Positions 29,601 through 52,849 of a stretch of 64,000 nucleotides of DNA are shown here, in pieces (the first letter of the stretch is position 1; each line of letters starts with the position of its first letter). Source of the stretch: an uncultured virus (IMG/VR IMGVR_UViG_3300049846_001482) (Duplodnaviria > Heunggongvirae > Uroviricota > Caudoviricetes). The notes beneath the pieces are model-generated. The model was not told where the DNA came from, ran no database searches, and was given only the letters and a program-made list of their open reading frames with translations. The stretch lies in IMG/VR virus record IMGVR_UViG_3300049846_001482; one strand, written 5' to 3'. Made by a program: the position numbers and the translations under genes.

Positions 29601-29601
29601 G

Positions 29602-33627: not shown

Positions 33628-34199
33628 GTTCGGTTACGTGAGATATCCTGATGCTATGACCCATTGGATCTGGATAGTCAAAATCAAGGTCACGGACAGA
33701 CTTCACCCTCTTGACATGCATCTGCCGCCCTTTGCCCTTGTATTCTATTCCCAAACCCTTGACGCCCTTGACGGTCTTGCCCTTGATGAAGTTCATGGCC
33801 TTCATCCAAGCGTCTGAGGAATCCTTCGCATCAACCTCAACAAAGCTGGTGGCAGGGTAGTTCAACTCCAGGTCAACCTTGAATTTTTTCTTCTTAGCGC
33901 CCATGTCTTCCTCAGTTGTTAGGGATGCCCTTTGGAGGCTTGCCATTGATGATGTCTTCTGGCTTTGGTATGACCATTGCTTTGCGTGGCTCAGGCCAAG
34001 AGGCAATACGAGCCGTTTCTACCTCTACCCGTGGTCGGATGTAAGCCAGCACCTCGTCGTATTTCCTGACGATATCGAAATCGTCCTTTTCCTCAGCCAT
34101 CTTCCTCATAGCCAGCATCTCTGGGGCAAAGAGGAAGACCAACTGTTCGTCAGACATGGTATCGGCTCGGTTTTTCAATGGATCAACAAAACTGTCCAT
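33620..34199 (-). CDS. two small ORFs (33620..33904, 33912..34199)
   Basis: ORF track, packed. Confidence 0.55.
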
Positions 34200-36763
34200 T
34201 ACAGCCTCGGATCGAAGGTTTTCTCACGCTTCTCTTCAACGACCATCTCAGCGCACAGGTCAAGGTATTTGACATTGCTATCGCTGATGGCGTTGTAGGG
34301 AATCTCCAGCATAGCCTTGCCAATCTCAAACTCCTTGATGGATGTCTTGAGTTTGTTCCTGATGCTCTTGTCCTCAAGCATCTTGGTGAACTTAGGCTCA
34401 ATTTGGTAATCGTAGCCATAGATGATGGTGAGGTAGTTTGGATTCCTGACCTTCATGTATGGAGCAACGCCAGGGATGTAAACTTTGGCGGCTGGCTTGA
34501 CAACCACTCCCTCAACGTTGTTGCTGACCTGCTCGGCAAACCAAGCCTTAGCCTCAACAAGTCCAGCGTCGGTTGTCTCGCAAACAACAAAATCGTCATT
34601 TGAGACAGCAGAGAAGACTTCCTCGTTGCTTGCGTCAAAGTAGGTCTGCTCGACACCCTCAAAGGTAACGGTCTTGAGGAGAGCAAATGGCCTGAACTCC
34701 AACTCCCCTTCGTTGCCGTAGATCTCCATCTGCTTGTTGTAGATGGAAATTGCAGCCTTCTGCTCTTCCAAAGATAGCCATTTGAAGCCATCAAAGGCGG
34801 ACATGAGCCTGTAGGTAGCTTCGCCCATGCTGTCCATGAGGTCTTTCTTCTTTTGGCTATTCTTGAGGCTCTTGTAGCCAGATGCATCAAACTTCTCCTG
34901 CATCTTAGACAGGGATGACTCAAAGCCAGTCTTCTCCAGCAACTCGGCTTCAGTGGATAGCCCAACGCCAGTCGTCTTGAAGTGTGAGTCAATGAGTCCC
35001 TTACCCAGCGCAGACCAAGGCATTAGCTCACCATCAATGATGATTAGCTTCTTGTCGTCTTTGAAGCCCCTACCCATCCAGACTTCACGCATCTTCTTGT
35101 AAAGAGGGGTGAGGTCCAAGTGCTTGATGACAAAGCCATTACGGGACACCATGTAGGACTCTTCGATGTCGTGTGGGAAGAGATACATGTTGGCACGACT
35201 TCCCATATACTTCTTCTGGAGGATGACCCTTTCTACCTTGGATCCCCTAAAGTACTCAAAAGCCTCACGCATGTCTTCCAGCGTCCTCTCCTTGAGGTTC
35301 TTGTCGCATGGAGACATGGTTCCAGAGATGAAGTTGATCTTGTTTCGAGCAAACTTGACAACATCCATCTTGTCATCAAAATCCAGAGACTCGAACAAGC
35401 CCTGTTTCTTGATGATCTTGAAGTTGGCAATGTCCCCTTCGGCAGCACCCTTTGGAACGGAGCTGGGAACCCACTTAAAGCTGATGGTTCGGTTGTGGGA
35501 GTTGAAGAAGACCCCAGTCAACCTGTTTCCGTAGGCGCAGCCAGTATCGAGGAACACTTTGTTGCCGACAGTTGTAGCCTCAGCAACAGCAATGTGCCCA
35601 AAGAAGTGGTAGGGGTCACGCCTATTGGATTCATCAAAGACATAGTGAATGCTCTTCTTGATGCCCTCAATGAAGGCTTCGTCAGAGTCGTATTCCCTAC
35701 GCCAGCCATAGGAGCAGTTACCCTGATCCTTGGTGGAGCGATGATCCATCTTGCCAATGCGATTGTTGGCACAAGGGGCATGGGTGACAACAAAGTGATC
35801 GTGCAACAGGAAGTAAGAGCTGTTCTTCATGATCTCCATGAACTTGCTCTTGGCGCTCTCTGTCATCTGCCCGAAGGAGTCGAAGAACTTAGCCCTCAGT
35901 TCATCAGCAGCCTTGTCGTTGTGGTTGTTGGTGATGAAGCGAATCAGGGAGTGGTCGTGGTTTCCAATGACCGTCCTGATACGAGCCCTATTGGCGTGAA
36001 TGAACTCGATGAGGTCGTTGATCTGCGGACCTTTGTCAGCCAAATCGCCAGCAAGAACAATAAGGGTGTCGTCATTGCCCTTGATGATGCCAGCCTCAAT
36101 GGAAAAGCCAGCAGCAATCAGCAAGTCCTCAAATTCCTTGAGGCAAGCATGGATGTCGCCAACAATGAAGTAGCGACTGAACGGCGGCAGGACAGAAAGA
36201 GCCATCGTATCGTAAGTGGCATCCCTGTCCAAAACCAGTTCTGCGTCCTTCGACTTGATCTTGTGGAAGAACTCAAAGTCCCTGCGGCGAATCTCTCCCA
36301 GCGTCTCCTGCTTGAAACGCTTGAGATGCTGACCAATGAGCCAAGCATGCTTGGGGTCCGTGTACTTGAAGTACTCGTCCCTGTCGGCATAGTCAAAGCA
36401 GAAGCCCGTGAGGCGGTAATTGGCTTCTTTGGTCAGATCAATGAAACGCTGCCTAGACTTCTCACCAATGAAGGTGGCGTCCAGAATGACGAAATCGGCG
36501 GAAACGGGCCAAGTGGTGACGGCTTGGAACTTGGCCTCCATCAACTTAAAGGCTCCCTCAGAAGCATAGTTCATGAGGTCGTCTGCCTTATCCAAGTTCT
36601 TTCCAATGATCTCCCTGCGGTATTCGTCTGAACTCAAGATCTGAATATTGGCATTGGGGACCATGCTCTTGAGGGCAGGCACAAGCTTCTCACGGATGAA
36701 ATGGCTTTTGCCACACCCGCTTGGACCAACCATCATGATGACTGACTTCAATGGAACGTTCAT
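34199..36763 (-). CDS. pnkp: polynucleotide kinase-phosphatase-ligase (bacterial Pnkp type)
   Basis: P-loop GPSGCGKS; metallophosphatase GDIH/GD..DKG/GNHD; ligase KYMGSR, DGELMPW, EGVVVKP, KVRNP.YL.IIYG; ends DPRL. Confidence 0.95.
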   Translation of the reverse strand: MNVPLKSVIMMVGPSGCGKSHFIREKLVPALKSMVPNANIQILSSDEYRREIIGKNLDKADDLMNYASEGAFKLMEAKFQAVTTWPVSADFVILDATFIGEKSRQRFIDLTKEANYRLTGFCFDYADRDEYFKYTDPKHAWLIGQHLKRFKQETLGEIRRRDFEFFHKIKSKDAELVLDRDATYDTMALSVLPPFSRYFIVGDIHACLKEFEDLLIAAGFSIEAGIIKGNDDTLIVLAGDLADKGPQINDLIEFIHANRARIRTVIGNHDHSLIRFITNNHNDKAADELRAKFFDSFGQMTESAKSKFMEIMKNSSYFLLHDHFVVTHAPCANNRIGKMDHRSTKDQGNCSYGWRREYDSDEAFIEGIKKSIHYVFDESNRRDPYHFFGHIAVAEATTVGNKVFLDTGCAYGNRLTGVFFNSHNRTISFKWVPSSVPKGAAEGDIANFKIIKKQGLFESLDFDDKMDVVKFARNKINFISGTMSPCDKNLKERTLEDMREAFEYFRGSKVERVILQKKYMGSRANMYLFPHDIEESYMVSRNGFVIKHLDLTPLYKKMREVWMGRGFKDDKKLIIIDGELMPWSALGKGLIDSHFKTTGVGLSTEAELLEKTGFESSLSKMQEKFDASGYKSLKNSQKKKDLMDSMGEATYRLMSAFDGFKWLSLEEQKAAISIYNKQMEIYGNEGELEFRPFALLKTVTFEGVEQTYFDASNEEVFSAVSNDDFVVCETTDAGLVEAKAWFAEQVSNNVEGVVVKPAAKVYIPGVAPYMKVRNPNYLTIIYGYDYQIEPKFTKMLEDKSIRNKLKTSIKEFEIGKAMLEIPYNAISDSNVKYLDLCAEMVVEEKREKTFDPRL

Positions 36764-37688: not shown

Positions 37689-38930
37689 CTACTCCAAGAC
37701 AGCGCCAATGCTGCAGCTATGCCCATTGACGTTATCGCCAATTTCGATGATACGAGCAGACCTCTCGCCTTTAACTTCATTGATCCAAGCCTCAAACTCA
37801 GCCTTGGTCATCTCAAAGTGATGGTCATCATGACGCATCTCTTCGTCATCAAAGAAGTAGAACTGGTTAAAGTCCTTGTTTGGAGTCGTGATGATGACCT
37901 TCTTGCACCAACGACTGGAGAGCATTTGCTTGACAAGGCTGGTTGCCTCATCCTTCTCCATATGCTCAATGACTTCTGAGAGGATGATGTCATGCTCTTG
38001 CCTAAGATCCAGCAAGCTCGTAGTCGTAAGGAGATGTTCTGGTTTTTCAGCCATCTCACGAGCAAACCTACGCTTGACAGTCTCGATCATCTCAGGGTCT
38101 TTGTCAATGGCGATGTAAACGAATTCACCCATTTTGGGTAGAAAACGCTTGACAAAGTTGCCCTCACCGCAACCGAAGTCTACAACAATCTTGTCAAAAG
38201 CCAGTTCTTTCTCCACAGCCGCAATACGCTGTTGAGAAGCGAAGCCAAACTGGAACTTGATGTCCTCAAAGGAGTTCTGTTCAAGCGACTTGACGTGCTG
38301 TTTGAAAACAGAGATATCCCTCAAGACATTGACCTTGAAGACATACTTGACGAAGAAGGGAGCCTTGATCGTGGCAAGGTAACTGAGATACTTATTGATC
38401 TCAGCATCGTCCAGCCTGCGATTCTTCAAGACATTGAACATGGCAAAGAGCTGGACAAAGGAGAAAAGCGTCTTGAAGCTCTCTTTGGTCGAGAAGGTGA
38501 CACTAAAGTTGTTGGGGCAAACCTCAGTGAAATCAATCTTGACGTTGGTGAAGTATTTTTGGAAGATCTCCAAATACTTCTTCTTTACCAGCATCATGTT
38601 GACGAAGATGGAGTTCTCAAAGCCCTCAACGTCATCGCTGTTATCCTTCTTGATGACATGGGCAAAGAACTCGTTGATGGAGTCTAGGACAAACTCGGCA
38701 GCGTTGTGCTGGCTGGGATTGACATAGCTCCACTCTTCATCCTTGAACTTCTTGTAGGAGATCTCGTGTTCGTGGTCCTTGAAGTAGCAGTTGAAAACAG
38801 AGTCATTGTTGGAGTAGTAACCGAACAGCCGACCCTGCTTCAAGGAACGCACAATCATCCCCGACTCAGGGTTCTTCCTGATGATGAAGGACAACTTTGG
38901 GTTGTTTGACCTTACCTGCAAGAAAGCCAT
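37689..38930 (-). CDS. hen1: Hen1 3'-terminal RNA 2'-O-methyltransferase
   Basis: N-terminal LSF..RKNP region; DFGCGEG, EVIEH, ITTPN.DFN, RH.DH.FE motifs; near pnkp. Confidence 0.92.
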   Translation of the reverse strand: MAFLQVRSNNPKLSFIIRKNPESGMIVRSLKQGRLFGYYSNNDSVFNCYFKDHEHEISYKKFKDEEWSYVNPSQHNAAEFVLDSINEFFAHVIKKDNSDDVEGFENSIFVNMMLVKKKYLEIFQKYFTNVKIDFTEVCPNNFSVTFSTKESFKTLFSFVQLFAMFNVLKNRRLDDAEINKYLSYLATIKAPFFVKYVFKVNVLRDISVFKQHVKSLEQNSFEDIKFQFGFASQQRIAAVEKELAFDKIVVDFGCGEGNFVKRFLPKMGEFVYIAIDKDPEMIETVKRRFAREMAEKPEHLLTTTSLLDLRQEHDIILSEVIEHMEKDEATSLVKQMLSSRWCKKVIITTPNKDFNQFYFFDDEEMRHDDHHFEMTKAEFEAWINEVKGERSARIIEIGDNVNGHSCSIGAVLE

Positions 38931-41343: not shown

Positions 41344-41349
41344 GAAATA

Positions 41350-41381
41350 AAAAGACCGCCAGTTGCCCAGCGGTCTCTTTA
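41350..41381 (-). terminator. intrinsic terminator after the TerD-domain gene
   Basis: AGACCGC/GCGGTCT hairpin followed by TTTTATTT on the minus strand. Confidence 0.65.
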
Positions 41382-41402: not shown

Positions 41403-43541
41403 TTAGAGCATTGTCAGGATTTCAGGCAGCGAATTGAGGGTGTATTCAAGATCGTAAACCTTGTCTGCCTTGGTCTTGTCAGTGACCAACTTGCCACGAC
41501 CCTCGGCATGAAGCTTGAACAGGTCGTAGAGAGTGGGCTTGTTGAGGTCCACGATGCCCTTGACGATGGTCGCAAGGCTCTTCTTGTTGCCTTCAACCGT
41601 GCGACCCCAGCCCATAGCGCCCATCTTGTTGTTGAGGGTCAGGTCAAGCCAGATCAACTCCCTCGTCTTGAGGTCGAACATCATGGGAACAGCAGTCGTG
41701 GCGACAGCAGTCAGGTCGAACTTGTGTTCAACCGTCTTGGGGTCATAGATCTCGCCAGACTTGAGATCGTTCCTCAGCATGACGCCAGCAAAGCACTCCT
41801 TCATCGTGTCGAAGGTCTGGTCCGTGAAGGCGTGGATGTTGACAGCGACATAGCGAATGCCATTATTGAGAGCCTTCTCGATGTCGATGTCGATGAACTC
41901 ACTGGCACCCCTGGGAGCGTCCGTGATGTCGCCGCTGTGAGCGCTCATGGAGCCCTCGCCACCACCCCAACGGAGATTGGTCCAGCTTACATGACCAGCG
42001 TCAGAGAAATTCTCATCGAGGAAGAAGACCGACAGATCGATGTCGATGCGATTGCCATAGTAGGAGTCGGTCTGAGCCTTCATGCCGTCCTTGACACCAT
42101 TCTTCCACCAGGTGAAGAGACGGACCACCTTCTTGTCGCCAGGGATTGCCACACGGGAACCACGGGCGATGGTCTTGAAGGAGTTGCTGGCGCTGCGGAG
42201 AGCAAAGGGCACGTTGATACCCTTCAAGGTCTCGTCAATGTAGACCTTGCCCAGCGAAGGCAGCTCACCAAAGCGGTTGATGAGAGCCTTGCCAGCGATC
42301 TTGACGATCTTGCCGCAGATGGCCTTGTCCAGAGGCTTGAGGTCATTCTTGATGACCTGAACCTTGGCCAGATTGCCCTTCGGGAAGAACATGCGGGTGT
42401 CAGCCTGCTCGGTACGGTTCTGGAAGTGGCTGTGGATGTTCAAGAGGACCGGCGTGGAGACCTTGCTCACGACCTTCTTGAAGACCTCGATGACGCCATC
42501 CTTCTGACGAGCATTGCGGACGAGCGCATCCAGCCTACGAGCCAAGTCCGTAGGACGCTCAGACAGAGCCCTGGCGCACTGGACGTACTTGCCCTCGGCG
42601 TACAGCTTCTCGATGTTGGTGTAGAAGGTCTCGATGGTGTTGCCGCTGCGGAGCTGCTTGAAAGCCGCAAAGACCTTAGGGAAGCGGGTCTTGAACTCGC
42701 CAGGGTGCAGCCTCTCAGCCACACGCACCCACTTGTTGCGGTGCTTGACCATGTTGGGAGCCAGATGGGTCATGCCCTCAAGGATGTTGAGGATCATCTT
42801 GCGCTGACCACGGGACAGCTTCGTGAACTTGGTGTTGTCTGCCAAGCTGACATCGCCATCCGACAAAGCCGTGATGAATCGCAGCACATCCGTTGGGGTA
42901 TTGAACAGACCCTCAAGCGTCAAGATGTTCTTGTCGGCATAGAGCATTCCAGCCACGAAAGCCAATATCTCCTTGTTGGAGATGTTGGTGGGCTTGAAGT
43001 TCTTCTTGTTGGTAGCGTAGTAGTCCTTGATGTAGTTGCGGTGGGTCTCGGACAGGGCAATGCTGGAGTGGATAAGGTCATCGATAGCCTTATCGTAGTC
43101 GCCCTTCTCGGCAAGACCGATGAGCTTGAGCTTGTGGTTGCCGATGAGGGCAGAACGCTCTGCCTTCTCATAGTTAGGCAACCAGCTCTCGCCAAAGACC
43201 ACGCTGATATAGTGGAAGATGGCGTTGAGGTAGAGTTCTGCATCCGAAGCGTTCATGACCTGGGTCGGGAAGTTCGGATACATAGGCTTGTGCGTGACAT
43301 GAGCTCCCTTCATCCTCTTGAGGACAGGGACGATCTCGTTGTAAAGCTCGTGCAACTCCGTCTCACTCATCAGGACGAGCCTGTTGATGAGCTTGCGTGA
43401 GAAGGTAAAGCCCAAGTCCTCGATGTTCTTCAACATCGTGGCGACATAGGTCTTGTGGTTGCGACCCGTCTTAGCCCCAAAATCAGAAACATCGATCTTG
43501 GAAGACAGTTCGAGCAGACAGGAGATCTTCTTGGAGTTCAT
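41403..43541 (-). CDS. large helical protein with C-terminal TerD-like domain
   Basis: 712 aa; KPMYPNFP.QVM, TPTDVLR, ERLHPGE in the N-terminal part; IDIDLS...HSGDIT.AP.GASEFIDID TerD signature. Confidence 0.8.
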   Translation of the reverse strand: MNSKKISCLLELSSKIDVSDFGAKTGRNHKTYVATMLKNIEDLGFTFSRKLINRLVLMSETELHELYNEIVPVLKRMKGAHVTHKPMYPNFPTQVMNASDAELYLNAIFHYISVVFGESWLPNYEKAERSALIGNHKLKLIGLAEKGDYDKAIDDLIHSSIALSETHRNYIKDYYATNKKNFKPTNISNKEILAFVAGMLYADKNILTLEGLFNTPTDVLRFITALSDGDVSLADNTKFTKLSRGQRKMILNILEGMTHLAPNMVKHRNKWVRVAERLHPGEFKTRFPKVFAAFKQLRSGNTIETFYTNIEKLYAEGKYVQCARALSERPTDLARRLDALVRNARQKDGVIEVFKKVVSKVSTPVLLNIHSHFQNRTEQADTRMFFPKGNLAKVQVIKNDLKPLDKAICGKIVKIAGKALINRFGELPSLGKVYIDETLKGINVPFALRSASNSFKTIARGSRVAIPGDKKVVRLFTWWKNGVKDGMKAQTDSYYGNRIDIDLSVFFLDENFSDAGHVSWTNLRWGGGEGSMSAHSGDITDAPRGASEFIDIDIEKALNNGIRYVAVNIHAFTDQTFDTMKECFAGVMLRNDLKSGEIYDPKTVEHKFDLTAVATTAVPMMFDLKTRELIWLDLTLNNKMGAMGWGRTVEGNKKSLATIVKGIVDLNKPTLYDLFKLHAEGRGKLVTDKTKADKVYDLEYTLNSLPEILTML

Positions 43542-43560
43542 GCTACACCTTAGAAAAAGT

Positions 43561-43794
43561 TTTAAGGAGAGCGGGCACTCTAGTTTCGGGTAAAGGCCTC
43601 CCCTTGCGGGTCGGCCTTTTAATGTGTAGAAGGAAGAACGCCCATAGCCTTAAAGTTTTTGAGGAGATTGCTCAGTCTAGTTTCATCCAATATGATTAGA
43701 AGGAAGACCGAACATAGCCTCAAGTTCTGGAGAGATCTGGGAGTCTAGTTTCTCGTATGATTAGAATTAGAAGGAAGACCCTCAATAGCCCCAG
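43561..43794 (-). ncRNA. array of three covarying RNA hairpin units in the 5' leader of the TerD-domain gene
   Basis: Units 43727-43794, 43659-43723 and 43561-43654 share GGCUA...CUUCCUUCUA...GAAACUAGA...UCU with compensatory stems. Confidence 0.8.
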
Positions 43795-43801
43795 TTCGAT
43801 T

Positions 43802-43830
43802 AGTATAGCAAAAGCCAGTTAGAGTGTCAA
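43802..43830 (-). promoter_or_regulatory. sigma70-like promoter driving the RNA array and TerD-domain gene
   Basis: TTGACA-17 nt (ending TGC)-TATACT; the -35 contains the upstream TGA stop. Confidence 0.8.
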
Positions 43831-44256: not shown

Positions 44257-44865
44257 TTACTCTCCACGCAAAAGGTTGATCTGGCTGCGAAGCATATGCT
44301 CGATGTTGCTGTATGCCTGCAACTGGTCAGGGTGGGTCTTACGAGCCTTCTTGAGCATAGGCAGGAAATACTGCTCCACTTCGGCGCAGTACTTCTGCTG
44401 CTTCTCTTTGGAGAAGACACCCACCATTGAGTTGATGTTGTGGATGCGATCAGCGCCCTTGACGATGCTGGCAGAAGGGCTCATAGCCATACGGTCAAAG
44501 TAGACCTCGTATGACTTACCGTTCTTGTTGAGCAGTTCGCATTCATCAGCGATGTCGTGTCCGAACTCGCTGGCCAAGAAAACCATCGTGACGGTGGAAT
44601 AGTCTTCCAGTAGGTCGTGGAGAAGTGCCAGTGTTATGACTCGCTCTTCGTCCCTGACATCCTTGAGCGTTGAGACATAGAGAGCTATCTCAATCTGATG
44701 CTGGAATTCAGGGGTCATCTTATCACGGCGAAGACCAGCGTGATGACGAGCCGCAAAATGGAAAGCCTTCAAGGCCGTGTTGTATTTACGGCCCAGAAGG
44801 TAGTAGTGGAGAGCGATCTTCAGCTTTCCAAACCTTTCCATGATTTTGGCTTGTTTGGCTTCCAT
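44257..44865 (-). CDS. HD-domain hydrolase, RelA/SpoT small alarmone hydrolase (Mesh1/SAH)-like
   Basis: A..HH.G.RR...P...H, ALLHDLLED, VK.ADR.HN motifs. Confidence 0.85.
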   Translation of the reverse strand: MEAKQAKIMERFGKLKIALHYYLLGRKYNTALKAFHFAARHHAGLRRDKMTPEFQHQIEIALYVSTLKDVRDEERVITLALLHDLLEDYSTVTMVFLASEFGHDIADECELLNKNGKSYEVYFDRMAMSPSASIVKGADRIHNINSMVGVFSKEKQQKYCAEVEQYFLPMLKKARKTHPDQLQAYSNIEHMLRSQINLLRGE

Positions 44866-44867
44866 GA

Positions 44868-45311
44868 CTATCTCCCCTGGTCCTGGTTCTTCTTGAAAGG
44901 CTTTCCGTTGAACCTTGTTCTGGGTGAAATTTTGCCCAGCGTCAGGTCTTTCCAGTAGTTAGCCCGATTCCAAGCTTTGTCTTCTACGGAACCACGAACC
45001 ACCACCCCATGCCAGCCACTCTTGTCGTTGGAGCCATAGAGGCGGCAGGGGACAGCCAGTTTGAGTTTGACCTCAAAGAGCTGCGTGGTCTTCTTGGTGC
45101 TGCAACAGTCCGTGTTGGAGAAGAGCAACGTCTCAATCAGCTCTCCATCGGAGCCCGTTGCGTCAAGATGCCAACGCTCACAGAACTGGATGGTCAGGAA
45201 CTCCGCATCCTTGTTGATGGGAGAAACAAAGACAGTCGGAGGCCGTGAGAATTTGGGCTTCTCATAGCCTTTGCTGGAAAGGTAAAAGACTTTGGCATCT
45301 AGAACGAGCAT
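44868..45311 (-). CDS. hypothetical protein
   Basis: GGAGG RBS, downstream of a promoter. Confidence 0.65.
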   Translation of the reverse strand: MLVLDAKVFYLSSKGYEKPKFSRPPTVFVSPINKDAEFLTIQFCERWHLDATGSDGELIETLLFSNTDCCSTKKTTQLFEVKLKLAVPCRLYGSNDKSGWHGVVVRGSVEDKAWNRANYWKDLTLGKISPRTRFNGKPFKKNQDQGR

Positions 45312-45334
45312 GACTTCCTCCGATTCAATGCCAA

Positions 45335-45363
45335 AGTATAACAATTTCGGAGGGGCTTGTCAA
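45335..45363 (-). promoter_or_regulatory. sigma70-like promoter
   Basis: TTGACA-17 nt-TATACT; contains the upstream TGA stop. Confidence 0.75.
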
Positions 45364-45857
45364 TAGTCTTTTTGGAGCCTTTTTTCGGCAAATTCCCTGA
45401 TGGCTTCAGCGTCCCAGCCATTGTCCCGACTGCTATTGCATCGCTCACAAGCCAGCCTCATATTGTGCATGTCAGTCAGCTTGCCACCGTGGCTAATCTT
45501 GATGATATGGTCAATCGTGACCTTATCGTGGGTTCGCTCCTTGACATCACGCAATGTCCTATTGCACTTGTAGCAATGCAATTCCCCGTCCCTTTTGAGA
45601 CAGAGGTTTATGAACTTCTGACGGACACGGTGGTAATGAGAAGGAATGTGTCCTTCTTCGTAGGGGGCTTGAAGGATGTCAACATACTTCTTGATCAGAA
45701 GAACAAGAGCGGCTTGAGAGTCAATGGGTGGGTCATCCATCAAGACATTCTGAAACCGCCGCAGGGTCTTTTCTTCCCTTTTCCAGCGGGCGATGTCGTC
45801 CTGGCTTGTTGGAATCTGATAGGACGGAGCAACGAAGGAACCCTTGACGGTTGGCAT
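45360..45857 (-). CDS. HNH endonuclease
   Basis: CYKC...TIDHII..S.GG.....N...AC.RCN motif. Confidence 0.88.
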   Translation of the reverse strand: MPTVKGSFVAPSYQIPTSQDDIARWKREEKTLRRFQNVLMDDPPIDSQAALVLLIKKYVDILQAPYEEGHIPSHYHRVRQKFINLCLKRDGELHCYKCNRTLRDVKERTHDKVTIDHIIKISHGGKLTDMHNMRLACERCNSSRDNGWDAEAIREFAEKRLQKDY

Positions 45858-45859
45858 GA

Positions 45860-46546
45860 TTACGACCAGTGGGTATAAATCATGGGTCTTAGTTCGTCAA
45901 CAAAAGAGGCAACATCCTTGACAATTCCCGTGTAAAGTAATAGGGCATGTATTGAGACAGGAATTGAGGGTCGCCAGTTGTTCTTGAGGTCTTCAACGAG
46001 AGCCTTGTCGGTCTCATCATCTTCAAGCAGATGGTGAAATACAAAGGAATCCAACCTTCCTTCCTTGTATTTCTTCGAACCACCATCCAAAGGCTTCCCT
46101 CTGAATCGCACCAAATAGCCCTCGTAGGGGTAAATGCCAGACCTGAGGCTCTTTGGCTGTTGCACCTTGGATCTGCTATCTGTGCCAGCCTCGTAGTAGT
46201 CTATCAGATCGTCGTACCGACTCCATGTGCCGGTATGAGGGAACGGCTGGAAGAGGATGACTGGTCCAGATTCGGGATGATAGATGATGTTTGAGTTGAC
46301 ATCTTGTGGAGACTTTTCAAATGTCTTTAACTGGATTTTAGAGATCAAAGAATCAAGTCTTTCTTTCTTGGCAGCTTTCATTATGAGTTTGAGGTTATCT
46401 TTATCCTCAACCCACTTAATCAAGTCCTTTAGGTTTAGGTCGTCACCCCAACCATCATCAAACATCTTGCTGGTGAAGCGAGGATCCTTCTCTCGCTTCC
46501 AGTCAGTGATGCCGTAGCCGATGGATTTGTGTATCCTAATCCCCAT
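45860..46546 (-). CDS. hypothetical protein
   Basis: ORF from MGIRIH; packed. Confidence 0.7.
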   Translation of the reverse strand: MGIRIHKSIGYGITDWKREKDPRFTSKMFDDGWGDDLNLKDLIKWVEDKDNLKLIMKAAKKERLDSLISKIQLKTFEKSPQDVNSNIIYHPESGPVILFQPFPHTGTWSRYDDLIDYYEAGTDSRSKVQQPKSLRSGIYPYEGYLVRFRGKPLDGGSKKYKEGRLDSFVFHHLLEDDETDKALVEDLKNNWRPSIPVSIHALLLYTGIVKDVASFVDELRPMIYTHWS

Positions 46547-46745
46547 TTTCTGCCTCGTACCATTGAACCCTGAGCCTATTGTCTCGGCTCCACAGTTTCC
46601 AGTGACCACCCCACAGATAGCACCACGTCAGCCCAAACCTTCCGATTTGGAGCTCGTACATAGTAGCGCCCTTTAGAACGCCCATCCATACCCCAAAGGG
46701 TCGGGCTGTGATGTAGTACTTGCCGACTGTGATGCCCGTCTTCAT
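46536..46745 (-). CDS. hypothetical protein
   Basis: 69 aa; overlaps the nadE stop by 4 nt. Confidence 0.5.
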   Translation of the reverse strand: MKTGITVGKYYITARPFGVWMGVLKGATMYELQIGRFGLTWCYLWGGHWKLWSRDNRLRVQWYEAENGD

Positions 46746-48472
46746 GCCAGAACGTTAGCGGGAGAATGCTTCTGGACAATGGGGAGCCTTCGCCCAGCGC
46801 CCCAAGCCTTCTGGTGGACTCTGATGGTAGGAGCAGCCTGACGACGCTTGAACTCTGCCCTGTCCACCATGCGATGGATCTTGGCGAAGTCCTTGAAGCC
46901 AGCCTTCTCCACCGTCTCCTTGCACTTGGCAAGGATCTTGGGGTCGATCTCCGTTCCCTCAATGTAAGGGATGAGAATGGCATCCAAGACAGGGTAGGGC
47001 GGCAGCGAGTCCGAGTCCTTCTGCCCCTCATAGAGTTCAGCCGAGGGCTCCTTGTCGATGATGGCGTTGGGGATGACCTCTCGCCACTTGGCATCGTTGA
47101 TGTAGCGGCAGAGTTCCCAGACCTCAGTCTTATAGAGGTCGCTGATGGGAGCCAGACCGCCGTTCATGTCGCCATAGATGGTGCAGTAGCCCACGGCACA
47201 CTCGCTCTTGTTGCCAGTGGTAAGCGGAAGGTATTCTGGGTTCTCATTGGTGAAAGCCATGAGAATCATGCCCCTGATTCGAGCCTGCAGGTTCTCTTTG
47301 GTCAGGCTCTTCTGCGACTTTCCGAAAGCTGCATCAAAGCCTTCCATGAGGGTGTCAAATCCTTCCCTGATGGGATATTCATAGAGTTTGACGCCAAGGT
47401 TCTCGCAAAGCTTCTGCGAATCCGTGACGCTTCCCTTTGAAGAGATTGCCGAAGGCATCGTGATGGCAATGACGTTCTCGCTTCCCACCGCTTCCACGGC
47501 CAGGGCCAGAACCAGAGCCGAATCAATGCCACCACTCGAAGCAATGGCAACCTTCTTGAAGCCACACTTCCTCACATAGTCCCTGATGCCAAGGACAATC
47601 TGGCGGAAGTAGAAAGCAGCCTCAGGGCGCTTCCGCTTAGCTTCATTTTCGCTCTTCAAAGCGATGTTTCCGCCAGAGTAGTGAGGGTCAAAGAGACCGC
47701 CATTTTCATCGTCCCACCAGATCGCCTTGGTCTCTTCGGTGAACGAGTCCATGACTACTTTACCATGACCATCGGGATTGACGGCAAAGCTGGTGCCATC
47801 AAACACAATGTCGTCGTTTCCGCCGACTTGGTTGACGTAGAGGATGGGAACCCCATGCTCCTTCGAGATGGCAGCGAACTTCTCCAGCCGATATTCGGGC
47901 TTGCCGACATTGGAAGGCGAAGCATTGACGCTGACGATTAGCTCGGCTCCCGCCTTGACAGTTTCCTCTACGGGATTGACGGGATAGAGGAACTTGTTGG
48001 TGATCGCCTTGTCATTCCACATGTCTTCGCAGATAAGCAAGCCAACCACGGTTTCGCCAATCTGGAAGGTGCAGGTTTCCTTCCCAGGCTCAAAGTGGCG
48101 GCTCTCATCGAAGATGTTGTAGGTGGGGAGCAGTCGCTTCTTGTAGGTTCGAGCAATCTCGCCATTACCCAGAAGCGAAGCGCAGTTGAAGAAGGGCTTG
48201 CCGACACCATCGTTTTCCATGATGTGTCCAACGATGACAGCAGCCTTCATGTGGTAGGTAAGAAGAGCCAGTCGTCCGAGGTATTCCATCTGCTCTTTGC
48301 AGAACCCAGCCCTCTCCACAAGGTCCAAAGGAGGATAGCCAGTCAGCGACAGCTCAGAGAAAACAATGAGGTCGTAGTAAGCCCCATTCTTCTCCATGAC
48401 TTCCTTGATCTTGAGGTAGTTACCCTCAAGGTCTCCAACGATGTAGTTGAGCTGAGCTGCTAGAATCTTCAT
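46742..48472 (-). CDS. nadE: glutamine-dependent NAD+ synthetase
   Basis: Nitrilase domain (FSEL..TGYPP, YKK..LP.Y..FDE.R.F, ICED.W) plus synthetase domain (SGGIDS, ENLQARIRG, TTGNKSE..VGY.T.YGD, PSAEL...Q.D). Confidence 0.96.
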   Translation of the reverse strand: MKILAAQLNYIVGDLEGNYLKIKEVMEKNGAYYDLIVFSELSLTGYPPLDLVERAGFCKEQMEYLGRLALLTYHMKAAVIVGHIMENDGVGKPFFNCASLLGNGEIARTYKKRLLPTYNIFDESRHFEPGKETCTFQIGETVVGLLICEDMWNDKAITNKFLYPVNPVEETVKAGAELIVSVNASPSNVGKPEYRLEKFAAISKEHGVPILYVNQVGGNDDIVFDGTSFAVNPDGHGKVVMDSFTEETKAIWWDDENGGLFDPHYSGGNIALKSENEAKRKRPEAAFYFRQIVLGIRDYVRKCGFKKVAIASSGGIDSALVLALAVEAVGSENVIAITMPSAISSKGSVTDSQKLCENLGVKLYEYPIREGFDTLMEGFDAAFGKSQKSLTKENLQARIRGMILMAFTNENPEYLPLTTGNKSECAVGYCTIYGDMNGGLAPISDLYKTEVWELCRYINDAKWREVIPNAIIDKEPSAELYEGQKDSDSLPPYPVLDAILIPYIEGTEIDPKILAKCKETVEKAGFKDFAKIHRMVDRAEFKRRQAAPTIRVHQKAWGAGRRLPIVQKHSPANVLA

Positions 48473-48546
48473 GGTTTCTCCTTTTGTTCTCGACTTTCTA
48501 ACCAGGAACCCAAACTAGTTGGGTTCAAGGTAAGACAGTGGAGACC

Positions 48547-49125
48547 TTATCGGGCATCGCCCTTGCTAAACACGTCCAGCGTCTTGTCCTTGCGTGTCTC
48601 GAAGGCGTTGGCCGTCTCATCGCTGGTCACGGGCTCGTAATCAGACCACTTGAAGTCAGCCGAGGGCTTGCCCACGAAACTGGCCAGCATGGAGGTGGGG
48701 AACTGCTTGACGTAGGACTTGTAGGCACGAGCCTTGTCGATCATGTCGGTCTGCGTAGCCTTGAAGTCATTGCGCCCGCTTTCGATGACCTGCTGCACCT
48801 GCTTATAGAGCGAAGCATCGAAGTTGGGGTTGGACTCCTGGATCCAGTTCATCAGCGGGTTCTTGCCCTTGTAGCGGCCTTCCATGAGACCCAGGTAGAC
48901 CTTCTGCATGTCGCCAGAGTACTGCGAAGGCACCTGAGCCACTTCCTTGACGCTCTTCCAGAAGTTGTCGTATTGCGACTTGGAGACATCCTTCGAGGCC
49001 TGGAGCGTGGTCTCGTAGCGGACGCAGGTGTTGTTCGTGGTGACGAGCATGATGCCGAAGATGAGGGCGAAGACCAAGCCCAGAGCACCGGCGACACCGA
49101 GGACGATCAGGACTGTGCGGTTCAT
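48547..49125 (-). CDS. membrane-anchored protein, LemA-like
   Basis: N-terminal TM; C-terminal YKSYVKQFP.SMLA resembles LemA; AAGGAG RBS. Confidence 0.65.
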   Translation of the reverse strand: MNRTVLIVLGVAGALGLVFALIFGIMLVTTNNTCVRYETTLQASKDVSKSQYDNFWKSVKEVAQVPSQYSGDMQKVYLGLMEGRYKGKNPLMNWIQESNPNFDASLYKQVQQVIESGRNDFKATQTDMIDKARAYKSYVKQFPTSMLASFVGKPSADFKWSDYEPVTSDETANAFETRKDKTLDVFSKGDAR

Positions 49126-49146
49126 GTCTTACTCCTTACGTTGGGG

Positions 49147-50283
49147 TTAAAAATTACGGCGGTAGCCACCGTAATCACTTCCTTGGCTCTCAAAGTCCAC
49201 CAGATTGACCAGCACCGAAATGGCGATGGCTAGGAAGATGGAGATACCAAGAAGCCAGTAGAATTCATTATCCGTCAGGATGATGGCTTGGTCAAGGTAC
49301 TTGTATTCCTTCATGGACTTGCGGAAGAAGTGCTTCTCCACGTTCTCGCCAATCGTCTTGATGATGGCGGGACGGTCCAGTTTGCCCACTTGCAAGATAC
49401 TGTCACGCATCTTGACCCTGAACATATCACTCTTGGCCCAAGCCAGCGTGTTGGTCCAGCGAATCATGCCATCAGGGTTAGTATCGATGAACACGATGAT
49501 GTCGTTCTTCTTGCCACCCAGCCAATGCTCCTTGACGGCGTAGAAGTATTCCTCCGACAGAGCAGGCGTGAAGAGGATGATGATATTGCACTGCTTCTTA
49601 GGACCGATGGCGGCATTGAGAGCAGTCAGATCCTTGTTCCACTGAGCCAACTCAGGGATGGAGACATTCCCGATGGGAAGAGCCCTATCAAGGATGGTGT
49701 CGTAGTCAGAGATGGCAGTGGGATAGGTCGGCAAGAAACTCTTGTAGCGTTCCTTGAAGCCCTGCTGACGAATGATAGTAGCCGAGTTGCCCTTGACATA
49801 GTTGACGTAGTTGCTCATGTGCATGTTGGGATCACCAGGCTTGAACTGCGTCCACCGGGGCGGCTCCTGCAGACCTTGGCGGTCAATGGTGGCGACACGG
49901 AAATCATCGCTGCCCATGCCCCAGGTGTAGAACACATTCCAGTCCACATCGAACTTATGCTCGTAGCAGGTCGAGCAGTGGCGAGTCGTCCAGCAGTGGC
50001 GAGAAGAGCCCGAACCAGAGCAATGCTCAGTTTCCCAGCAAGGAGGGCACTCGTAGCTATGGCGGCAATGAACCTCTTCACGCTTCTTGTCGGTGACGTG
50101 GCCGTTGATGACCTGCGTATCCGACTGCTTACCAGCCGAACAGCCAAAAACGGTGATGGTCATGACCAGCATGATGCCACCCACCTGAAAGGCGAGTTCC
50201 TTGACAGTCACACGCTTCCTGAAAAACAGGAAGTTCAGCAGCGAAATCAGGATGGCTGGGGCAACGATGTAGAGAAACAGCAT
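49147..50283 (-). CDS. membrane protein with Cys/His-rich region and possible TPM-like domain
   Basis: Two N-terminal TMs, C.HSY.C...C.TCYEH, W.GGKKND..V, C-terminal TM; GGAGG RBS. Confidence 0.75.
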   Translation of the reverse strand: MLFLYIVAPAILISLLNFLFFRKRVTVKELAFQVGGIMLVMTITVFGCSAGKQSDTQVINGHVTDKKREEVHCRHSYECPPCWETEHCSGSGSSRHCWTTRHCSTCYEHKFDVDWNVFYTWGMGSDDFRVATIDRQGLQEPPRWTQFKPGDPNMHMSNYVNYVKGNSATIIRQQGFKERYKSFLPTYPTAISDYDTILDRALPIGNVSIPELAQWNKDLTALNAAIGPKKQCNIIILFTPALSEEYFYAVKEHWLGGKKNDIIVFIDTNPDGMIRWTNTLAWAKSDMFRVKMRDSILQVGKLDRPAIIKTIGENVEKHFFRKSMKEYKYLDQAIILTDNEFYWLLGISIFLAIAISVLVNLVDFESQGSDYGGYRRNF

Positions 50284-50304
50284 ATCTTCCTCCGAGTTGA
50301 CACC

Positions 50305-50333
50305 ACTCTAACATAGTAAGTATTACTTGTCAA
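50305..50333 (-). promoter_or_regulatory. sigma70-like promoter
   Basis: TTGACA-17 nt-TAGAGT. Confidence 0.6.
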
Positions 50334-50342
50334 TAGTTGGTG

Positions 50343-50912
50343 TCAGCCCCTACTAAACCTTGCAAAAGCGTCATTTTCCATCCAGCCCCAGACAAAGAAT
50401 GGGTCAATCTCTGTGCCAATTTCTTTGTCAGGTTCTTGGTTGACCCAAACCGAGCCATTCCATTGGGCTGTGGTGACATAGGCTCCCCAATGCAGGATGG
50501 TCTTGGGTCCAATGGGATTCCCACTGTTGGTCTTGAGTTTGGGTGGCTGAGTCTTCCAACCTTGACGTTCAGCCAGCTCTCCCCGCCATTGGATGTACTG
50601 TTGAACAAGGTCGTTGCTCATGTCCTTTGAATGGGTTCTCTCAAACCGTTTGAAGGCAAGCGTTCTGTCAGCTCCGTTGGGAAACATGACAGTGACCAAC
50701 ATCTTTTGTTCCTCGTTGACCACGAGCGTATAAAAGCGACCATCCACATTGACCAGAAAGACCGATTTACCACCCTCCTCTTGACGAATGCGTGTGTAGT
50801 CGGTGTTGATGGCTTTAAGCAGATGATCAACTGATGTCTTTGAACGAAGGAAAAGACCAACTCGTTCCGCCGTCCGCTCAATGAAATGGTTATTGATCTG
50901 CGTGACCAACAT
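50343..50912 (-). CDS. hypothetical protein, possible RelE/DUF4258-like N-terminal domain
   Basis: INNHFIER..ER...LVV......LVTV pattern; GGAGG RBS. Confidence 0.5.
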   Translation of the reverse strand: MLVTQINNHFIERTAERVGLFLRSKTSVDHLLKAINTDYTRIRQEEGGKSVFLVNVDGRFYTLVVNEEQKMLVTVMFPNGADRTLAFKRFERTHSKDMSNDLVQQYIQWRGELAERQGWKTQPPKLKTNSGNPIGPKTILHWGAYVTTAQWNGSVWVNQEPDKEIGTEIDPFFVWGWMENDAFARFSRG

Positions 50913-50913
50913 A

Positions 50914-51465
50914 TCAGTCTCCTCCCCCACCGTCACCACCACCATCTCCACCACCGCTGTCACCACCAGAATCGCCACCCGAATCACCACCAGAGTCGCT
51001 TCCGCTATCAGAACCAGCATCGGCATCAGCGCTCTCGGCGGCGGCTTCGGCTTCAACCTCAGCCTCAGACATGGGTTCAGCATTTTCCGTGTTTTCCTCA
51101 ATCTCCATTTCTTGCTCTTCTTCCACAACCTGCTCATCCTTAGGCTCAGAACCCTTGGACCAAGATCCCGCAGGAGGCATCGTCTTCCCGTAAGAGGCAT
51201 AGGAAGAGGAGGAGCCCATATCGAAGTCGTAGAGCCACCAGATGTCATTGTCATCGGCATAGGCATAGTGACCTTGCCACTTGCCATCAGCCTGCTTGGT
51301 TGGCTTGAGCTTTACAACCTGCTCAACCTTCTTGGTGGCATGCTTGAAATGCTTATGTTCGTGAGATCTGTGAGCTATGGCAAAAAGCATCAAACCCAAG
51401 AGGGCTGCGAAGAAAAGCCCAAAGAATAAACCGTCTTCAGCCTGTCCTTTTTGATTAAACATCAC
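50914..51465 (-). CDS. membrane protein with acidic/Gly-rich (DSGG)n tail
   Basis: N-terminal TM; imperfect 12-nt tandem repeats at ~50925-51010. Confidence 0.7.
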   Translation of the reverse strand: MMFNQKGQAEDGLFFGLFFAALLGLMLFAIAHRSHEHKHFKHATKKVEQVVKLKPTKQADGKWQGHYAYADDNDIWWLYDFDMGSSSSYASYGKTMPPAGSWSKGSEPKDEQVVEEEQEMEIEENTENAEPMSEAEVEAEAAAESADADAGSDSGSDSGGDSGGDSGGDSGGGDGGGDGGGGD

Positions 51466-51471
51466 TTTCTC

Positions 51472-51672
51472 CTATAGCTTGATGCCAGCATCTTTAGCGG
51501 CATAGTAAAGGTTTGCATGTCCGCATGGGCAAGTGTCCATGCCGTCATCATCACAGCCATCTTCATGAGAGTGGGCTATTTTGGTCCTCGAAAGGACTTC
51601 CCCAAGCTTCTTGATGGCAGGATGTTTTGCCAACTGCTCAGGGGTTAGGGACTTGATCTCGGCGTCAGTCAT
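51472..51672 (-). CDS. small hypothetical protein
   Basis: ORF from MTDAE overlapping the pncB end. Confidence 0.5.
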   Translation of the reverse strand: MTDAEIKSLTPEQLAKHPAIKKLGEVLSRTKIAHSHEDGCDDDGMDTCPCGHANLYYAAKDAGIKL

Positions 51673-52849
51673 GGATTTGGAAGACCTTCTTGAGATAGGC
51701 AAGGAAGACATCATCGTTGCACATCGTCTTGCCACGGGCTTCGCTGATCTTGGCGACAGGGCTTCCATTACATTCCGTCATCTTCATGACGATTTGCAGG
51801 GCTTCGTCACCGAAGTCATTGGTGAGCGACGTGCCGATGCCGAAGAGAGCATTCATCTTGGGCGTCTGCTTCTTGAGTTCGATGGCACTGTCGATGGTCA
51901 GACCATCCGAGAAGATGATGGTCTTGGTCTTGGGGTCGATGCCCAACTTCTCGTAGTGAGCCACCATGCGGTTGTAGACATCAATGGGATCACCCGAATC
52001 CTGACGGATGCCATCGTAGAGCTTGGCGAAGTAGAGGTTGAAGTCACGCAGGAAGGCATCAAAGCCAAGCGTGTCAGCCAGAGCAATGCCCAGCGATCCA
52101 GGATATTCGTCCTGCCAACGCTGGAGGGCGACCTTCTGGAAGTCCTGCAGCCGAACCAAGGCCTGATGAGCCATGAACCACTCGTGGGCATGGGTTCCCT
52201 TGCAGGGGATGTTGTACTTGCGGGCAAAGTAGACGTTGCTGGTGCCGATGAGGTTGGCAGGGACATGCTCTTTGAGCAGACCGATGACCCGATCCTGATG
52301 CTCGAAGTAGCGGCGACGACGAGTGCCGAATTCCATGATCTTGACGAGTTCACTGTTGAGGACCGAAGCCCTCTGTAGGTTGCCGATCTTGGTCATCAGG
52401 CGCTGCACCGCAACACCAGTCTCGGCATCCAGTTGTTCCTTAGTCTTGCCGTTGGTGAAGTAGATCTCGTTGACGATGGCGAGAATGGGGACTTCGGCAA
52501 GAATGGTGTTGAGCCATGTGCCATGAACATCCACTTGGAGGTCGCCATTCTTGTCGATGTAGATGTCGATGCGGTTGGCGTCATTCCGATAGATGAAGAG
52601 GTAGTTGAGGAAGTCCTCTTTGAAGAGTCCGAGCGACTTCAGATAGCTCAACTCGTCAAACTGAAAAGTCAGCTTGCGGAAGGCTTCGATCTCCGACTTG
52701 ATGAACTCAAGATAGGGGCGGAAATCAATCCCCTTATTGCGGCACTTGAATTCGTATTTCACCCCAGCCGTAGGCTGCTGATGAAAGACGGCCTGCATCA
52801 TGGTGAGTTTGTAGAGATCGGTGTCGAGCAGCGATTTGATGATTGCCAT
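51665..52849 (-). CDS. pncB: nicotinate phosphoribosyltransferase
   Basis: SLLDTDLYKLTM, EFGTRRR, GTSNV, GT.AHEW, GIRQDSGDP, IFSDGL, FGIGT.LTND, KMTECNG.PVAKIS (E. coli PncB-like). Confidence 0.95.
   Translation of the reverse strand: MAIIKSLLDTDLYKLTMMQAVFHQQPTAGVKYEFKCRNKGIDFRPYLEFIKSEIEAFRKLTFQFDELSYLKSLGLFKEDFLNYLFIYRNDANRIDIYIDKNGDLQVDVHGTWLNTILAEVPILAIVNEIYFTNGKTKEQLDAETGVAVQRLMTKIGNLQRASVLNSELVKIMEFGTRRRRYFEHQDRVIGLLKEHVPANLIGTSNVYFARKYNIPCKGTHAHEWFMAHQALVRLQDFQKVALQRWQDEYPGSLGIALADTLGFDAFLRDFNLYFAKLYDGIRQDSGDPIDVYNRMVAHYEKLGIDPKTKTIIFSDGLTIDSAIELKKQTPKMNALFGIGTSLTNDFGDEALQIVMKMTECNGSPVAKISEARGKTMCNDDVFLAYLKKVFQIHD

Follow-up and report, generated by a model that had tools for sequence, protein, structure and literature searches.

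A 64,000-nucleotide stretch of DNA from an uncultured virus of the Caudoviricetes (IMG/VR record IMGVR_UViG_3300049846_001482), called the window here, carries on its minus strand three small RNA hairpin units directly upstream of the gene for P0001, a protein of 712 amino acids (aa). Such units represent a real, widespread and so far uncatalogued class of small structured RNA of about 65-95 nucleotides (nt), and they co-occur near-exclusively, and on the same strand, with a single protein family, to which P0001 belongs. According to the reading that we favour with moderate confidence, the RNAs are obligate genomic partners of these ~700-aa proteins, which combine a helical solenoid with a TerD domain, and a ribonucleoprotein (RNP) of the Ro60/Y-RNA type is the likeliest form of the partnership. 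We prefer this reading because of the strict co-occurrence, the placement of units as discrete elements, the match of the predicted protein structure to Ro60 and the YrlA-type inserts in some units. A dedicated RNP following the logic of Ro60 and Y RNA had already been suggested in an earlier note made from the letters of the window, and these four points speak for it, whereas homology to TROVE at the level of sequence profiles was undetectable.

The arrangement in the window is compact. The -10 element ends 6 nt before the first base of unit 1, which places the predicted transcription start at ~43795, and the ACUUUUUCU tract behind unit 3 is followed by a ribosome-binding site (AAGGUG) with 4 nt to the ATG of the 712-aa open reading frame (ORF). 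The promoter, the extra hairpin of the third unit and the terminator behind the gene (Table 1) are all present as the earlier note had described them, and its central observation, three minus-strand units of the same architecture with stems that differ in sequence yet remain paired, was confirmed by folding, by a covariance model (R1) and by covariation. The outer stems of units 1, 2 and 3 read CUGGGG/CUCCAG, UUGAGG/CCUCAA and UUUAAGG/CCUUAAA, the inner stems of 9-10 base pairs (bp) have a different sequence in each unit with the pairing kept, and the units are 66-81% identical in pairwise comparison. The 271-nt unit region has a minimum free energy of −79.8 kcal/mol (z −3.7), a value equalled by none of 200 shuffles. 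Searched over the 64 kb, R1 recovers exactly the three units at strong scores. A mini-hairpin within the gene (window 43071-43094, minus strand; GAUAAGGCUAU..CCUUAUC), in which only the outer stem and CUAU fit the model, scores 15 bits (E 0.047) and is probably a chance match. The terminator hairpin was read by eye, since its loop of 10 nt lies outside the 3-8 nt allowed in the automated terminator scan, which missed it for this reason. A DNA search of the locus against a phage database gave no match.

The family-wide consensus was derived from the word TCCTTCTA, which recurs on the gene strand beside homologous genes in loci from IMG/VR and from a genome collection. Alignment A2, from which R1 was built, comprises 55 units, two of them from the window, and was obtained by pairing the flanks of each occurrence of TCCTTCTA by script. 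In A2, 96.0% of 879 cells are paired, compared with 43.5-49.8% if the 3' partner is slid by 1-3 columns; since the seed was filtered for a minimum of 8 out of 9 and of 6 out of 7 pairs, selection inflates this percentage but does not affect the variety of pair types. Changes on both sides occur in 13 of the 16 pairs, and the covariation score amounts to 0.83 versus 0.13-0.15 for slid partners and 0.19 for shuffles. From this we conclude that the structure of the units is far beyond chance.

Each unit is composed of an outer stem of 6-7 bp, an internal loop CUAU/RMUYU, a covarying stem of 9 bp and a loop that opens with UCCUUCUA, and the conserved core can be written as GGCUAU ... CUUCCUUCUA ... 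RMUYUCC. No variation occurs at GGC.A, where the outer stem ends, at the U plus UCCUUCU that open the loop, at the A within the closing AG and at one C in the 3' outer strand; at least 90% conserved are the C before the loop, the U and the G flanking the closing A, and the UC in the 3' internal loop and strand. Two descriptions in the earlier note had to be adjusted accordingly: its internal loop CUA/(A,C)UCU fits the units of the window and becomes CUAU facing the five nucleotides (G/A)(C/A)U(U/C)U in the family, and of the two loop boundaries UCCUUCUA and GAAACU only the former is kept throughout, as GAAACU is conserved within the phage of the window and elsewhere only the U before the closing AG remains.

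That the element belongs to no named family, as had been supposed, holds for Rfam 15. At gathering thresholds the window yielded tRNAs only, the unit region at E ≤ 10 gave one chance-level match to a long non-coding RNA and nothing on the units, and in 18 related loci the unit core was matched by no family at E ≤ 1. Neither a description of the RNA nor an RNA partner for the protein family was found in the full-text literature, a search whose scope excluded most subscription journals.

We searched with R1, as the earlier note had proposed, in 86 homolog loci, namely six from IMG/VR and the best 80 of 559 matching stretches from a collection with one genome per bacterial or archaeal species. 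At E ≤ 0.01, there were 156 matches distributed across 83 of the 86 loci, and all 156 were located on the gene strand. With the filters switched off, one of the three remaining loci (L067) showed a partial match, and the other two (L010 and L030) still showed none. A search of the whole genomes of five carriers resulted in nine matches, all adjoining the gene and coming from four genomes (4.3-8.7 Mb), and in none for the genome of L010. The latter (Bacillus toyonensis, genome G001) is a natural RNA-less case, in which the gene stands within a tight same-strand row of DUF2935 and YkuD transpeptidase genes, followed by anthrone oxygenase-like, DoxX, MarR and P450 genes.

The same linkage is apparent within one bacterial family and in cultured phages. 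In an even sample of 121 genomes of Paenibacillaceae (the family of G003 by its record title), the RNA is present in 30 and the protein in 31 genomes, and 90 have neither; all 30 RNA-positive genomes are also protein-positive, and the 31st protein-positive genome contains only a C-terminal fragment with an in-frame TGA. In the rows compared, the RNA cluster is located ~40-150 nt upstream of the gene. Homologs in cultured phages share 24-38% identity, and units were found on the gene strand in MT835874 (four upstream, best 46.3 bits), Xanthomonas phage XacN1 (three upstream; 40.3, 32.2 and 26.4 bits), Rhodococcus phage Weasels2 (three downstream; 24.0, 15.8 and 15.3 bits) and Lactobacillus phage LpeD (two upstream), with weak R1 matches in Mycobacterium phage WXIN and Rhodobacter phage RcXuper, and no match in Salicola phage SCTP-2. 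In the distant phages the consensus has drifted to GGCCAC or to CUUACUUCUA, which would be expected under co-evolution with the protein.

The reverse search, which used the RNA motif alone (GGCTAT-N7-CTTCCTTCTA), detected at least 133 stretches in IMG/VR, from which 80 loci were taken with their flanks. A homolog of the protein is encoded within 3.5 kb in 62 of the 80 loci, without exception on the strand of the motif (62 of 62). Eight of the 18 loci lacking a nearby homolog harbor strong R1 units at E ≤ 1e-7 (L110, L111, L115, L116, L118, L124, L131 and L154), three show weak R1 matches (L117, L120 and L147), and the seven without any R1 match are probably chance matches to the pattern. For L115, L118 and L110 the gene is located elsewhere in the same record, ~10, 22 and 31 kb away, respectively, two of these records being rated 100% complete, and L111 lies on one contig with L167, which carries the gene; in L116 and L124, which are fragments rated 27% and 19% complete, no protein was found. 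From these results we conclude that the RNA co-occurs near-exclusively, and on the same strand, with one protein family.

The protein itself is predicted to be composed of an N-terminal helical solenoid (residues ~1-460), a TerD β-sandwich (~468-659) and terminal helices (AlphaFold2 model with a predicted local distance difference test score, pLDDT, of 81; N-terminal domain folded alone, 82). According to this model, the C-terminal domain has the TerD fold: VIA-align places it on 3ibz with Z 15.2 (root-mean-square deviation, rmsd, 3.3; 159 residues aligned) and on 2kxt, 2qng, 2qz7 and 9a6r_B with Z 12.7-14.7, Foldseek matches the model to 3ibz at E 6.7e-6, and the acidic DxD ... GD ... E..D motifs align with those of TerD. 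The designation as a TerD-domain gene in the earlier note is thus supported by the fold and not by Pfam, which at E ≤ 0.1 gives no family for P0001 and hence no TerD, TROVE or RING match. Among 36 family members, Pfam TerD (PF02342) matches four weakly (best E 0.0054) and Pfam TROVE (PF05731) is absent. Like the TerD proteins of PF02342 (3ibz, 2kxt), residues ~468-659 share fold and acidic motifs; unlike them, which are single-domain proteins of ~190 aa encoded in ter operons, this part forms the C-terminal portion of a 712-aa protein with an RNA partner.

The family is large. A profile of the N-terminal domain, searched against 1.84 billion proteins, found 2,974 cluster representatives (50% identity) at E ≤ 0.001, with clear family members only among the 150 best matches listed, and the family further includes the 559 stretches of the genome collection and many large phages. 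P0001 is part of PHROG 33734, where no function is assigned, and in the records of its relatives we find the names 'TerD family protein', 'cytoplasmic protein' or 'stress response protein SCP2'. In NCBIfam, P0001 is placed next to NF041916 (the MXAN_6230/SCO0854 RING family), which matches it across the helical and TerD-like parts at E 2.6e-125 (419.6 bits, best-scoring stretch 302-690 on profile positions 385-761 of 842), but below the curated cut-off of 600 bits and without a Pfam RING in P0001; the scores of P0039 and P0052 (455.2 and 515.5 bits) are likewise below 600. In the ESM Atlas, the NF041916 family is a structural neighbour with a template modelling (TM) score of 0.85 over 454 residues and the cluster label Prok-RING_4, and TROVE is not among the named neighbours. 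Three members of 1,066-1,075 aa (P0136, P0223 and P0228) begin with ~400 residues of ankyrin repeats; these repeats, or the RING in the sister family NF041916, suggest that the core recruits protein partners. PADLOC reported no defence system, bar one chance-level row for P0039, and the family and profile scans run with P0001 yielded no nuclease family match.

The comparison with Ro60 is based on the solenoid. In an unbiased VIA-align scan of the N-terminal domain against 48,161 representative chains of the PDB, the two best matches were Ro60 proteins, namely Ro60 of Thermus phage phiLo (Z 8.9, rmsd 3.8, 236 aligned, residues 148-447 onto 25-332 of the chain) and Rsr of D. radiodurans (Z 8.8, 241 aligned), and Xenopus Ro was ranked tenth (Z 5.9, 286 aligned); unrelated repeat proteins reached Z ≤ 6.6 over ~100 residues. 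Using the whole model, Z was 8.9 for Rsr of D. radiodurans (307 aligned) and 8.3 for an entry named 'Trove domain', and Foldseek ranked 9nep_A 19th with a probability of 0.98. The N-terminal domain thus appears Ro60-ring-like in shape, and we do not file it as TROVE. For the TROVE-like ring that the earlier note proposed to look for by structure prediction, the two top ranks in VIA-align speak in favour, and Foldseek searched with the domain alone does not.

Whether the units act as separate RNAs or only as part of the transcript of the gene can be judged from their placement. According to a purely cis-acting explanation, the hairpins would be operators or attenuators in the gene's own transcript, and expression of the gene would be controlled by the protein, or by hairpin and U-tract serving as a terminator, without any function in trans. 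Most units are indeed located directly 5' of the gene, and a T-rich tail (at least 5 T in 8 nt) follows 40 of 129 script-defined units, including unit 3 of the window, as compared to 5.2% at random positions. Moreover, the gene-proximal unit in Paenibacillus overlaps the ribosome-binding site, its 3' strand CCUGGAG being located 7-8 nt before the AUG. However, in 12 of the 83 loci all units follow the gene, and in two more they flank it on both sides; others are 10-31 kb away from the gene, and arrays comprise up to six units. Furthermore, there are stand-alone copies with signals of their own: three Brevibacillus loci (L028, L037 and L038) contain one unit ~1.8 kb upstream of the gene, past two opposite-strand genes, with a -35/-10 pair set to start at the first base of the unit and a U-run after its last base, and Saccharibacillus L052 has a similar distal copy ~1 kb upstream. 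Overall, a promoter-like pair is present 3-11 nt upstream of 10 of the 129 script-defined units versus 1.8% at random.

Units apart from the gene frequently occur within phage tRNA arrays, where they share the strand of the tRNAs and keep in register with them (Table 1), with 1-2 nt between an encoded CCA end and the next unit and 6-8 nt between a unit and the next tRNA. Since units occur downstream of the gene, 10-31 kb away from it or inside tRNA arrays, they are discrete small RNAs and not merely a leader. We therefore consider an exclusive role in cis unlikely, and the autoregulatory element proposed in the earlier note may apply in addition to gene-proximal units, as the overlap in Paenibacillus illustrates. 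Note, tRNA scanners miss the units in the arrays, and apparent gaps in phage tRNA arrays may hold RNA units.

In some members of the family, the variable loop resembles parts of a tRNA. When 4,227 Rfam families were compared with the loop insert of an L015 unit that lies downstream of the gene, YrlA was the best match (29.6 bits; E 1.4e-4, calculated for the stretch searched), and the same applies to the insert of a unit in L055 (20.6 bits, E 0.036). In both cases a T-arm (GGUUCRAGUCC) is followed by a hairpin and then by a D-arm, and this order of T, acceptor-like and D elements is the one described for YrlA (PMC4201824). Among 319 distinct regex-defined units from all loci, a T-arm-like stem-loop, defined as a 5-bp stem with a G-C pair closing a UUCRANY loop and located no more than 70 nt behind the motif, is present in 17, compared with 0.1 in shuffled loops; at least 10 different stem sequences are represented, and several of the 17 units come from related phages and are not independent events. 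The three units of the window have no tRNA-like domain, and the YrlA model (RF02553) did not match their region at E ≤ 10. The GNCGAAN0-1G motif, which in YrlA is located near the 5' end and overlaps the Rsr-binding site (PMC4201824), is absent from the three window units and from the 55-unit consensus.

Taken side by side, the two systems have several features in common. Like bacterial Y RNAs (YrlA, Yrn1), the units are small (~65-130 nt), with 5' and 3' ends paired in a conserved stem that is joined to a variable module, and they are encoded beside the protein gene and on its strand, frequently as several copies; YrlA is found within 4 kb of the Ro60 gene on the same strand (PMC4201824). The tRNA-like T/acceptor-like/D module of YrlA is shared by some family members only. 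Like Ro60, P0001 has a helical domain, which in the model superposes best on Ro60 rings, and a putatively metal-binding C-terminal domain after the solenoid, and both pairs are found in phages with RNA-repair genes (PMC7824862). Unlike YrlA, the units lack GNCGAAN0-1G, their core GGCUAU ... CUUCCUUCUA ... RMUYUCC is unrelated, and the neighbouring gene, although adjacent and on the same strand, has no Pfam TROVE match. Unlike Ro60, P0001 lacks a TROVE sequence signal, has TerD in place of the vWA/MIDAS domain and possesses ~147 extra N-terminal residues. The RNA and protein pair would accordingly work like the Ro60/Y-RNA system and not be a member of it.

A type III toxin-antitoxin system, in which tandem RNA repeats from the same promoter would keep an otherwise harmful protein in check, at a ratio determined by a leaky terminator, is brought to mind by the succession of promoter, tandem RNA units, terminator-like U-tract and protein gene, which recalls the layout of ToxIN. 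We consider this improbable: in place of near-identical repeats, the units of the window are diverged (66-81% alike) and covarying, single units are common, others lie behind the gene or in remote tRNA arrays, and the protein is a large one of 712 aa that matches no nuclease family.

About equally improbable, in our view, are tRNA-like decoys or processing elements that act independently of the protein, for example as substrates or baits of nucleases that target tRNAs and of enzymes that process them, so that RNA and gene would share a pathway and not a complex. The units in register within tRNA arrays, the T-arm mimics in 17 of 319 units and the position of the window locus in an island of tRNA and RNA-repair genes would all fit such decoys, but not the nearly one-to-one co-occurrence in bacterial chromosomes, where the neighbours are otherwise unrelated. 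In addition, the conservation of UCCUUCUA and the internal loop extends over hosts from many different phyla (by record titles), as would be expected for one co-evolving protein partner. The weakest candidate, a tandem riboswitch or other ligand-sensing leader, which the earlier note had also considered, is suggested by tandem units with conserved unpaired nucleotides in a 5' leader and is hardly credible for a simple hairpin with two short conserved loops and no Rfam match, units of which also occur downstream of the gene and in tRNA arrays. A role of the variable loops as guides, another idea put forward there, found no support within the window, where the longest antisense matches of its three variable loops are 9-10 nt long, compared with a mean of 9.8 and a maximum of 13 for random 20-mers.

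Some observations weigh against the Ro60/Y-RNA-type RNP. The link of P0001 to Ro60 is one of fold only, in a predicted structure, and Z values near 9 are possible between unrelated helical repeats. Foldseek with the N-terminal domain alone found nothing at E ≤ 0.001 and did not list Ro60 among the top 50, hhalign of the family against a 22-sequence Ro60 alignment gave probabilities of 0.4% and 0.3%, with both alignments being too shallow (Neff 3.2 and 2.4) to argue against a distant kinship, and searches of PDB sequences with P0001 and with its profile revealed no link to Ro60, P0001 itself having no match at all. The similarity to YrlA concerns loop inserts only, and the scores in L015 and L055 are far under the gathering threshold of 69 bits. 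For the homologs L010 (whole genome included), L030 and SCTP-2, no unit was detectable in the DNA examined. Contigs from RNA libraries that cover L014:2150-2750 (four runs, Logan) are 5-8 kb long, with flat depth and no starts or ends, and are silent on transcription and processing. Finally, the U-runs after many units and the overlap with the ribosome-binding site in Paenibacillus also fit cis-regulation.

For the Ro60/Y-RNA-like RNP, we infer protein binding of the unit core, processing of the units and a cellular role from the comparisons above. The predicted binding platform comprises the outer stem ending in GG/CC, the CUAU/RMUYU loop, the closing C-G and U-A pairs and UCCUUCUA at the start of the loop, and the freely evolving loop would be a modular appendage that in some relatives is an extra hairpin or a mimic of a tRNA T-arm or T- and D-arm. 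In the phage of the window, the strong promoter would start transcription at the first base of unit 1, so that the three units form the 5' portion of the mRNA; many transcripts probably terminate at the U-tract behind unit 3, which would provide RNA in excess of protein, and the units may then be trimmed apart or cut out of the leader. Units embedded in arrays would be freed by the tRNA-processing machinery. During infection, the probable task of the RNP is to survey or repair RNA, as the locus is located among RNA ligases, a Pnkp-like and a Thg1-like protein and tRNA genes. As a speculation, the pyrimidine-rich UCCUUCUA, which can pair with purine tracts of the AGGAGG type, might in addition target sequences of the Shine-Dalgarno kind.

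TerD domains have so far been tied to tellurite and phage resistance, and the pair described here links them to RNA biology. It also offers a candidate function, RNA binding, for a large family that has so far borne generic names, and adds a new type of non-tRNA gene to phage tRNA arrays. Ro60 and Y RNA have been the model case of a protein in bacteria and phages that is accompanied by modular small RNAs of its own (PMC4201824), and the present pair would be a second one with another RNA core and another protein architecture. More tentatively, and as a possibility that we would not call probable, the pair might represent a second, sequence-unrelated lineage of Y-RNA-type RNPs, in which the solenoid/TerD protein is loaded with modular RNAs that can be made from tRNA arrays in the manner of tRNAs and in some cases bear mimics of a T- or D-arm, and with which phages, together with RNA ligases, Pnkp and tRNAs of their own, survey or rescue RNAs attacked by host defences. 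The pair is testable, given a clearly structured and covarying RNA and a simple rule of co-occurrence, and tractable carriers exist in Priestia megaterium, Paenibacillus, Brevibacillus, Rhodococcus phage Weasels2 and Lactobacillus phage LpeD.

Table 1 Positions of the RNA units and accompanying features in the window, and of units within tRNA arrays of other loci. Scores refer to covariance model R1.
Feature	Position	Strand	Remark
Sigma-70-type promoter TTGACA-17-TATACT, extended -10 TG	window 43802..43830	-	11/12 consensus matches
RNA unit 1, 70 nt, loop UCCUUCUA...GAAACU, internal loop CUAU/GAUCU	window 43726..43795	-	57.2 bits, E 4.5e-15; seed member
RNA unit 2, 67 nt, architecture as unit 1, internal loop CUAU/AAUCU	window 43658..43724	-	61.0 bits, E 3.2e-16; seed member
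RNA unit 3, 94 nt, internal loop CUAU/GCUCU, extra G+C-rich hairpin in variable loop	window 43561..43654	-	55.5 bits, E 1.5e-14; outside seed, independent match
ACUUUUUCU tract straight after unit 3, then ribosome-binding site AAGGUG	window 43546..43560	-	tract a candidate leaky terminator, judged from sequence
ORF of P0001, 712 aa	window 41403..43541	-	
Intrinsic terminator, stem AGACCGC/GCGGUCU, 10-nt loop, then UUUUAUUU	window ~41345..41376	-	read by eye
tRNA-His guanylyltransferase (Thg1-like)	window 14254-15027		
RNA ligases, two	window 21045-21704; 28506-29642		
QueC	window 23971-25044		
Phosphatase/kinase/ligase-like (Pnkp-like) protein, 854 aa	window 34199-36763		
tRNA-methyltransferase-like gene	window 37689-38930		
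HD phosphohydrolase	window 44257-44865		
tRNA matches, nine	window 58.7-61.9 kb		Rfam
Units in tRNA array	L115:3306-5820		unit-tRNAGly-unit; tRNAPro-unit-tRNAGlu-unit
Unit in tRNA array	L118:2857-3528		tRNAPro-unit-tRNAPro
Units in tRNA array	L116:3496-3647		unit-unit-tRNAGly
Unit in tRNA array	L124:1132-1492		unit within phage tRNA array

The genes around the locus in the window (14254-37592 and 44257-52849) form a phage island of RNA-repair, tRNA and nicotinamide adenine dinucleotide (NAD) genes, the latter being the salvage genes for NAD synthetase and NAMPT. One of the tRNA matches (61457-61579, minus strand) spans 123 nt, as compared to 70-74 nt for the others, and may hold an intron or a long insert. 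In cultured phages, annotated nucleotidyltransferases are encoded beside the gene in XacN1 and RcXuper, and tRNAs in Weasels2. According to a review of jumbo phages, some of them possess a TROVE protein that, with a tRNA-like partner, provides an RNP platform for RNA repair (PMC7824862); its passages on this subject do not mention the TerD-family protein. In 18 bacterial loci with 53 flanking ORFs, no neighbour is conserved and the neighbours vary by genome, from which we conclude that gene and RNA constitute a self-contained module. Brevibacillus borstelensis encodes both a canonical TROVE Ro60 (P0334) and the TerD-family gene with its RNA (L064), and the two systems are thus not mutually exclusive.

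Individual loci contain further elements upstream of the units or the gene. In Paenibacillus (L024:2090-2140, L062, L064, L009, L065 and ten more loci in alignment A4), a strongly conserved box GTCGTAATACTTTCRCCCTGTTCGC ... ATGNGATGAT is located ~90 nt upstream of the first unit; a promoter or operator served by a specific regulator is conceivable, as is an additional RNA element. A metagenome-assembled genome (MAG) of Acetivibrio (L055:1620-1938 and 2501-3952) contains a group II intron (domains 1-4, 154.5 bits) upstream of the gene, the match to which is shorter than in other loci. In a MAG contig of the Saprospiraceae, two units and the TerD-family gene are preceded, at a distance of ~470 nt, by a full-length GOLLD RNA (L012:1265-1698; 171.6 bits, gathering threshold 150).

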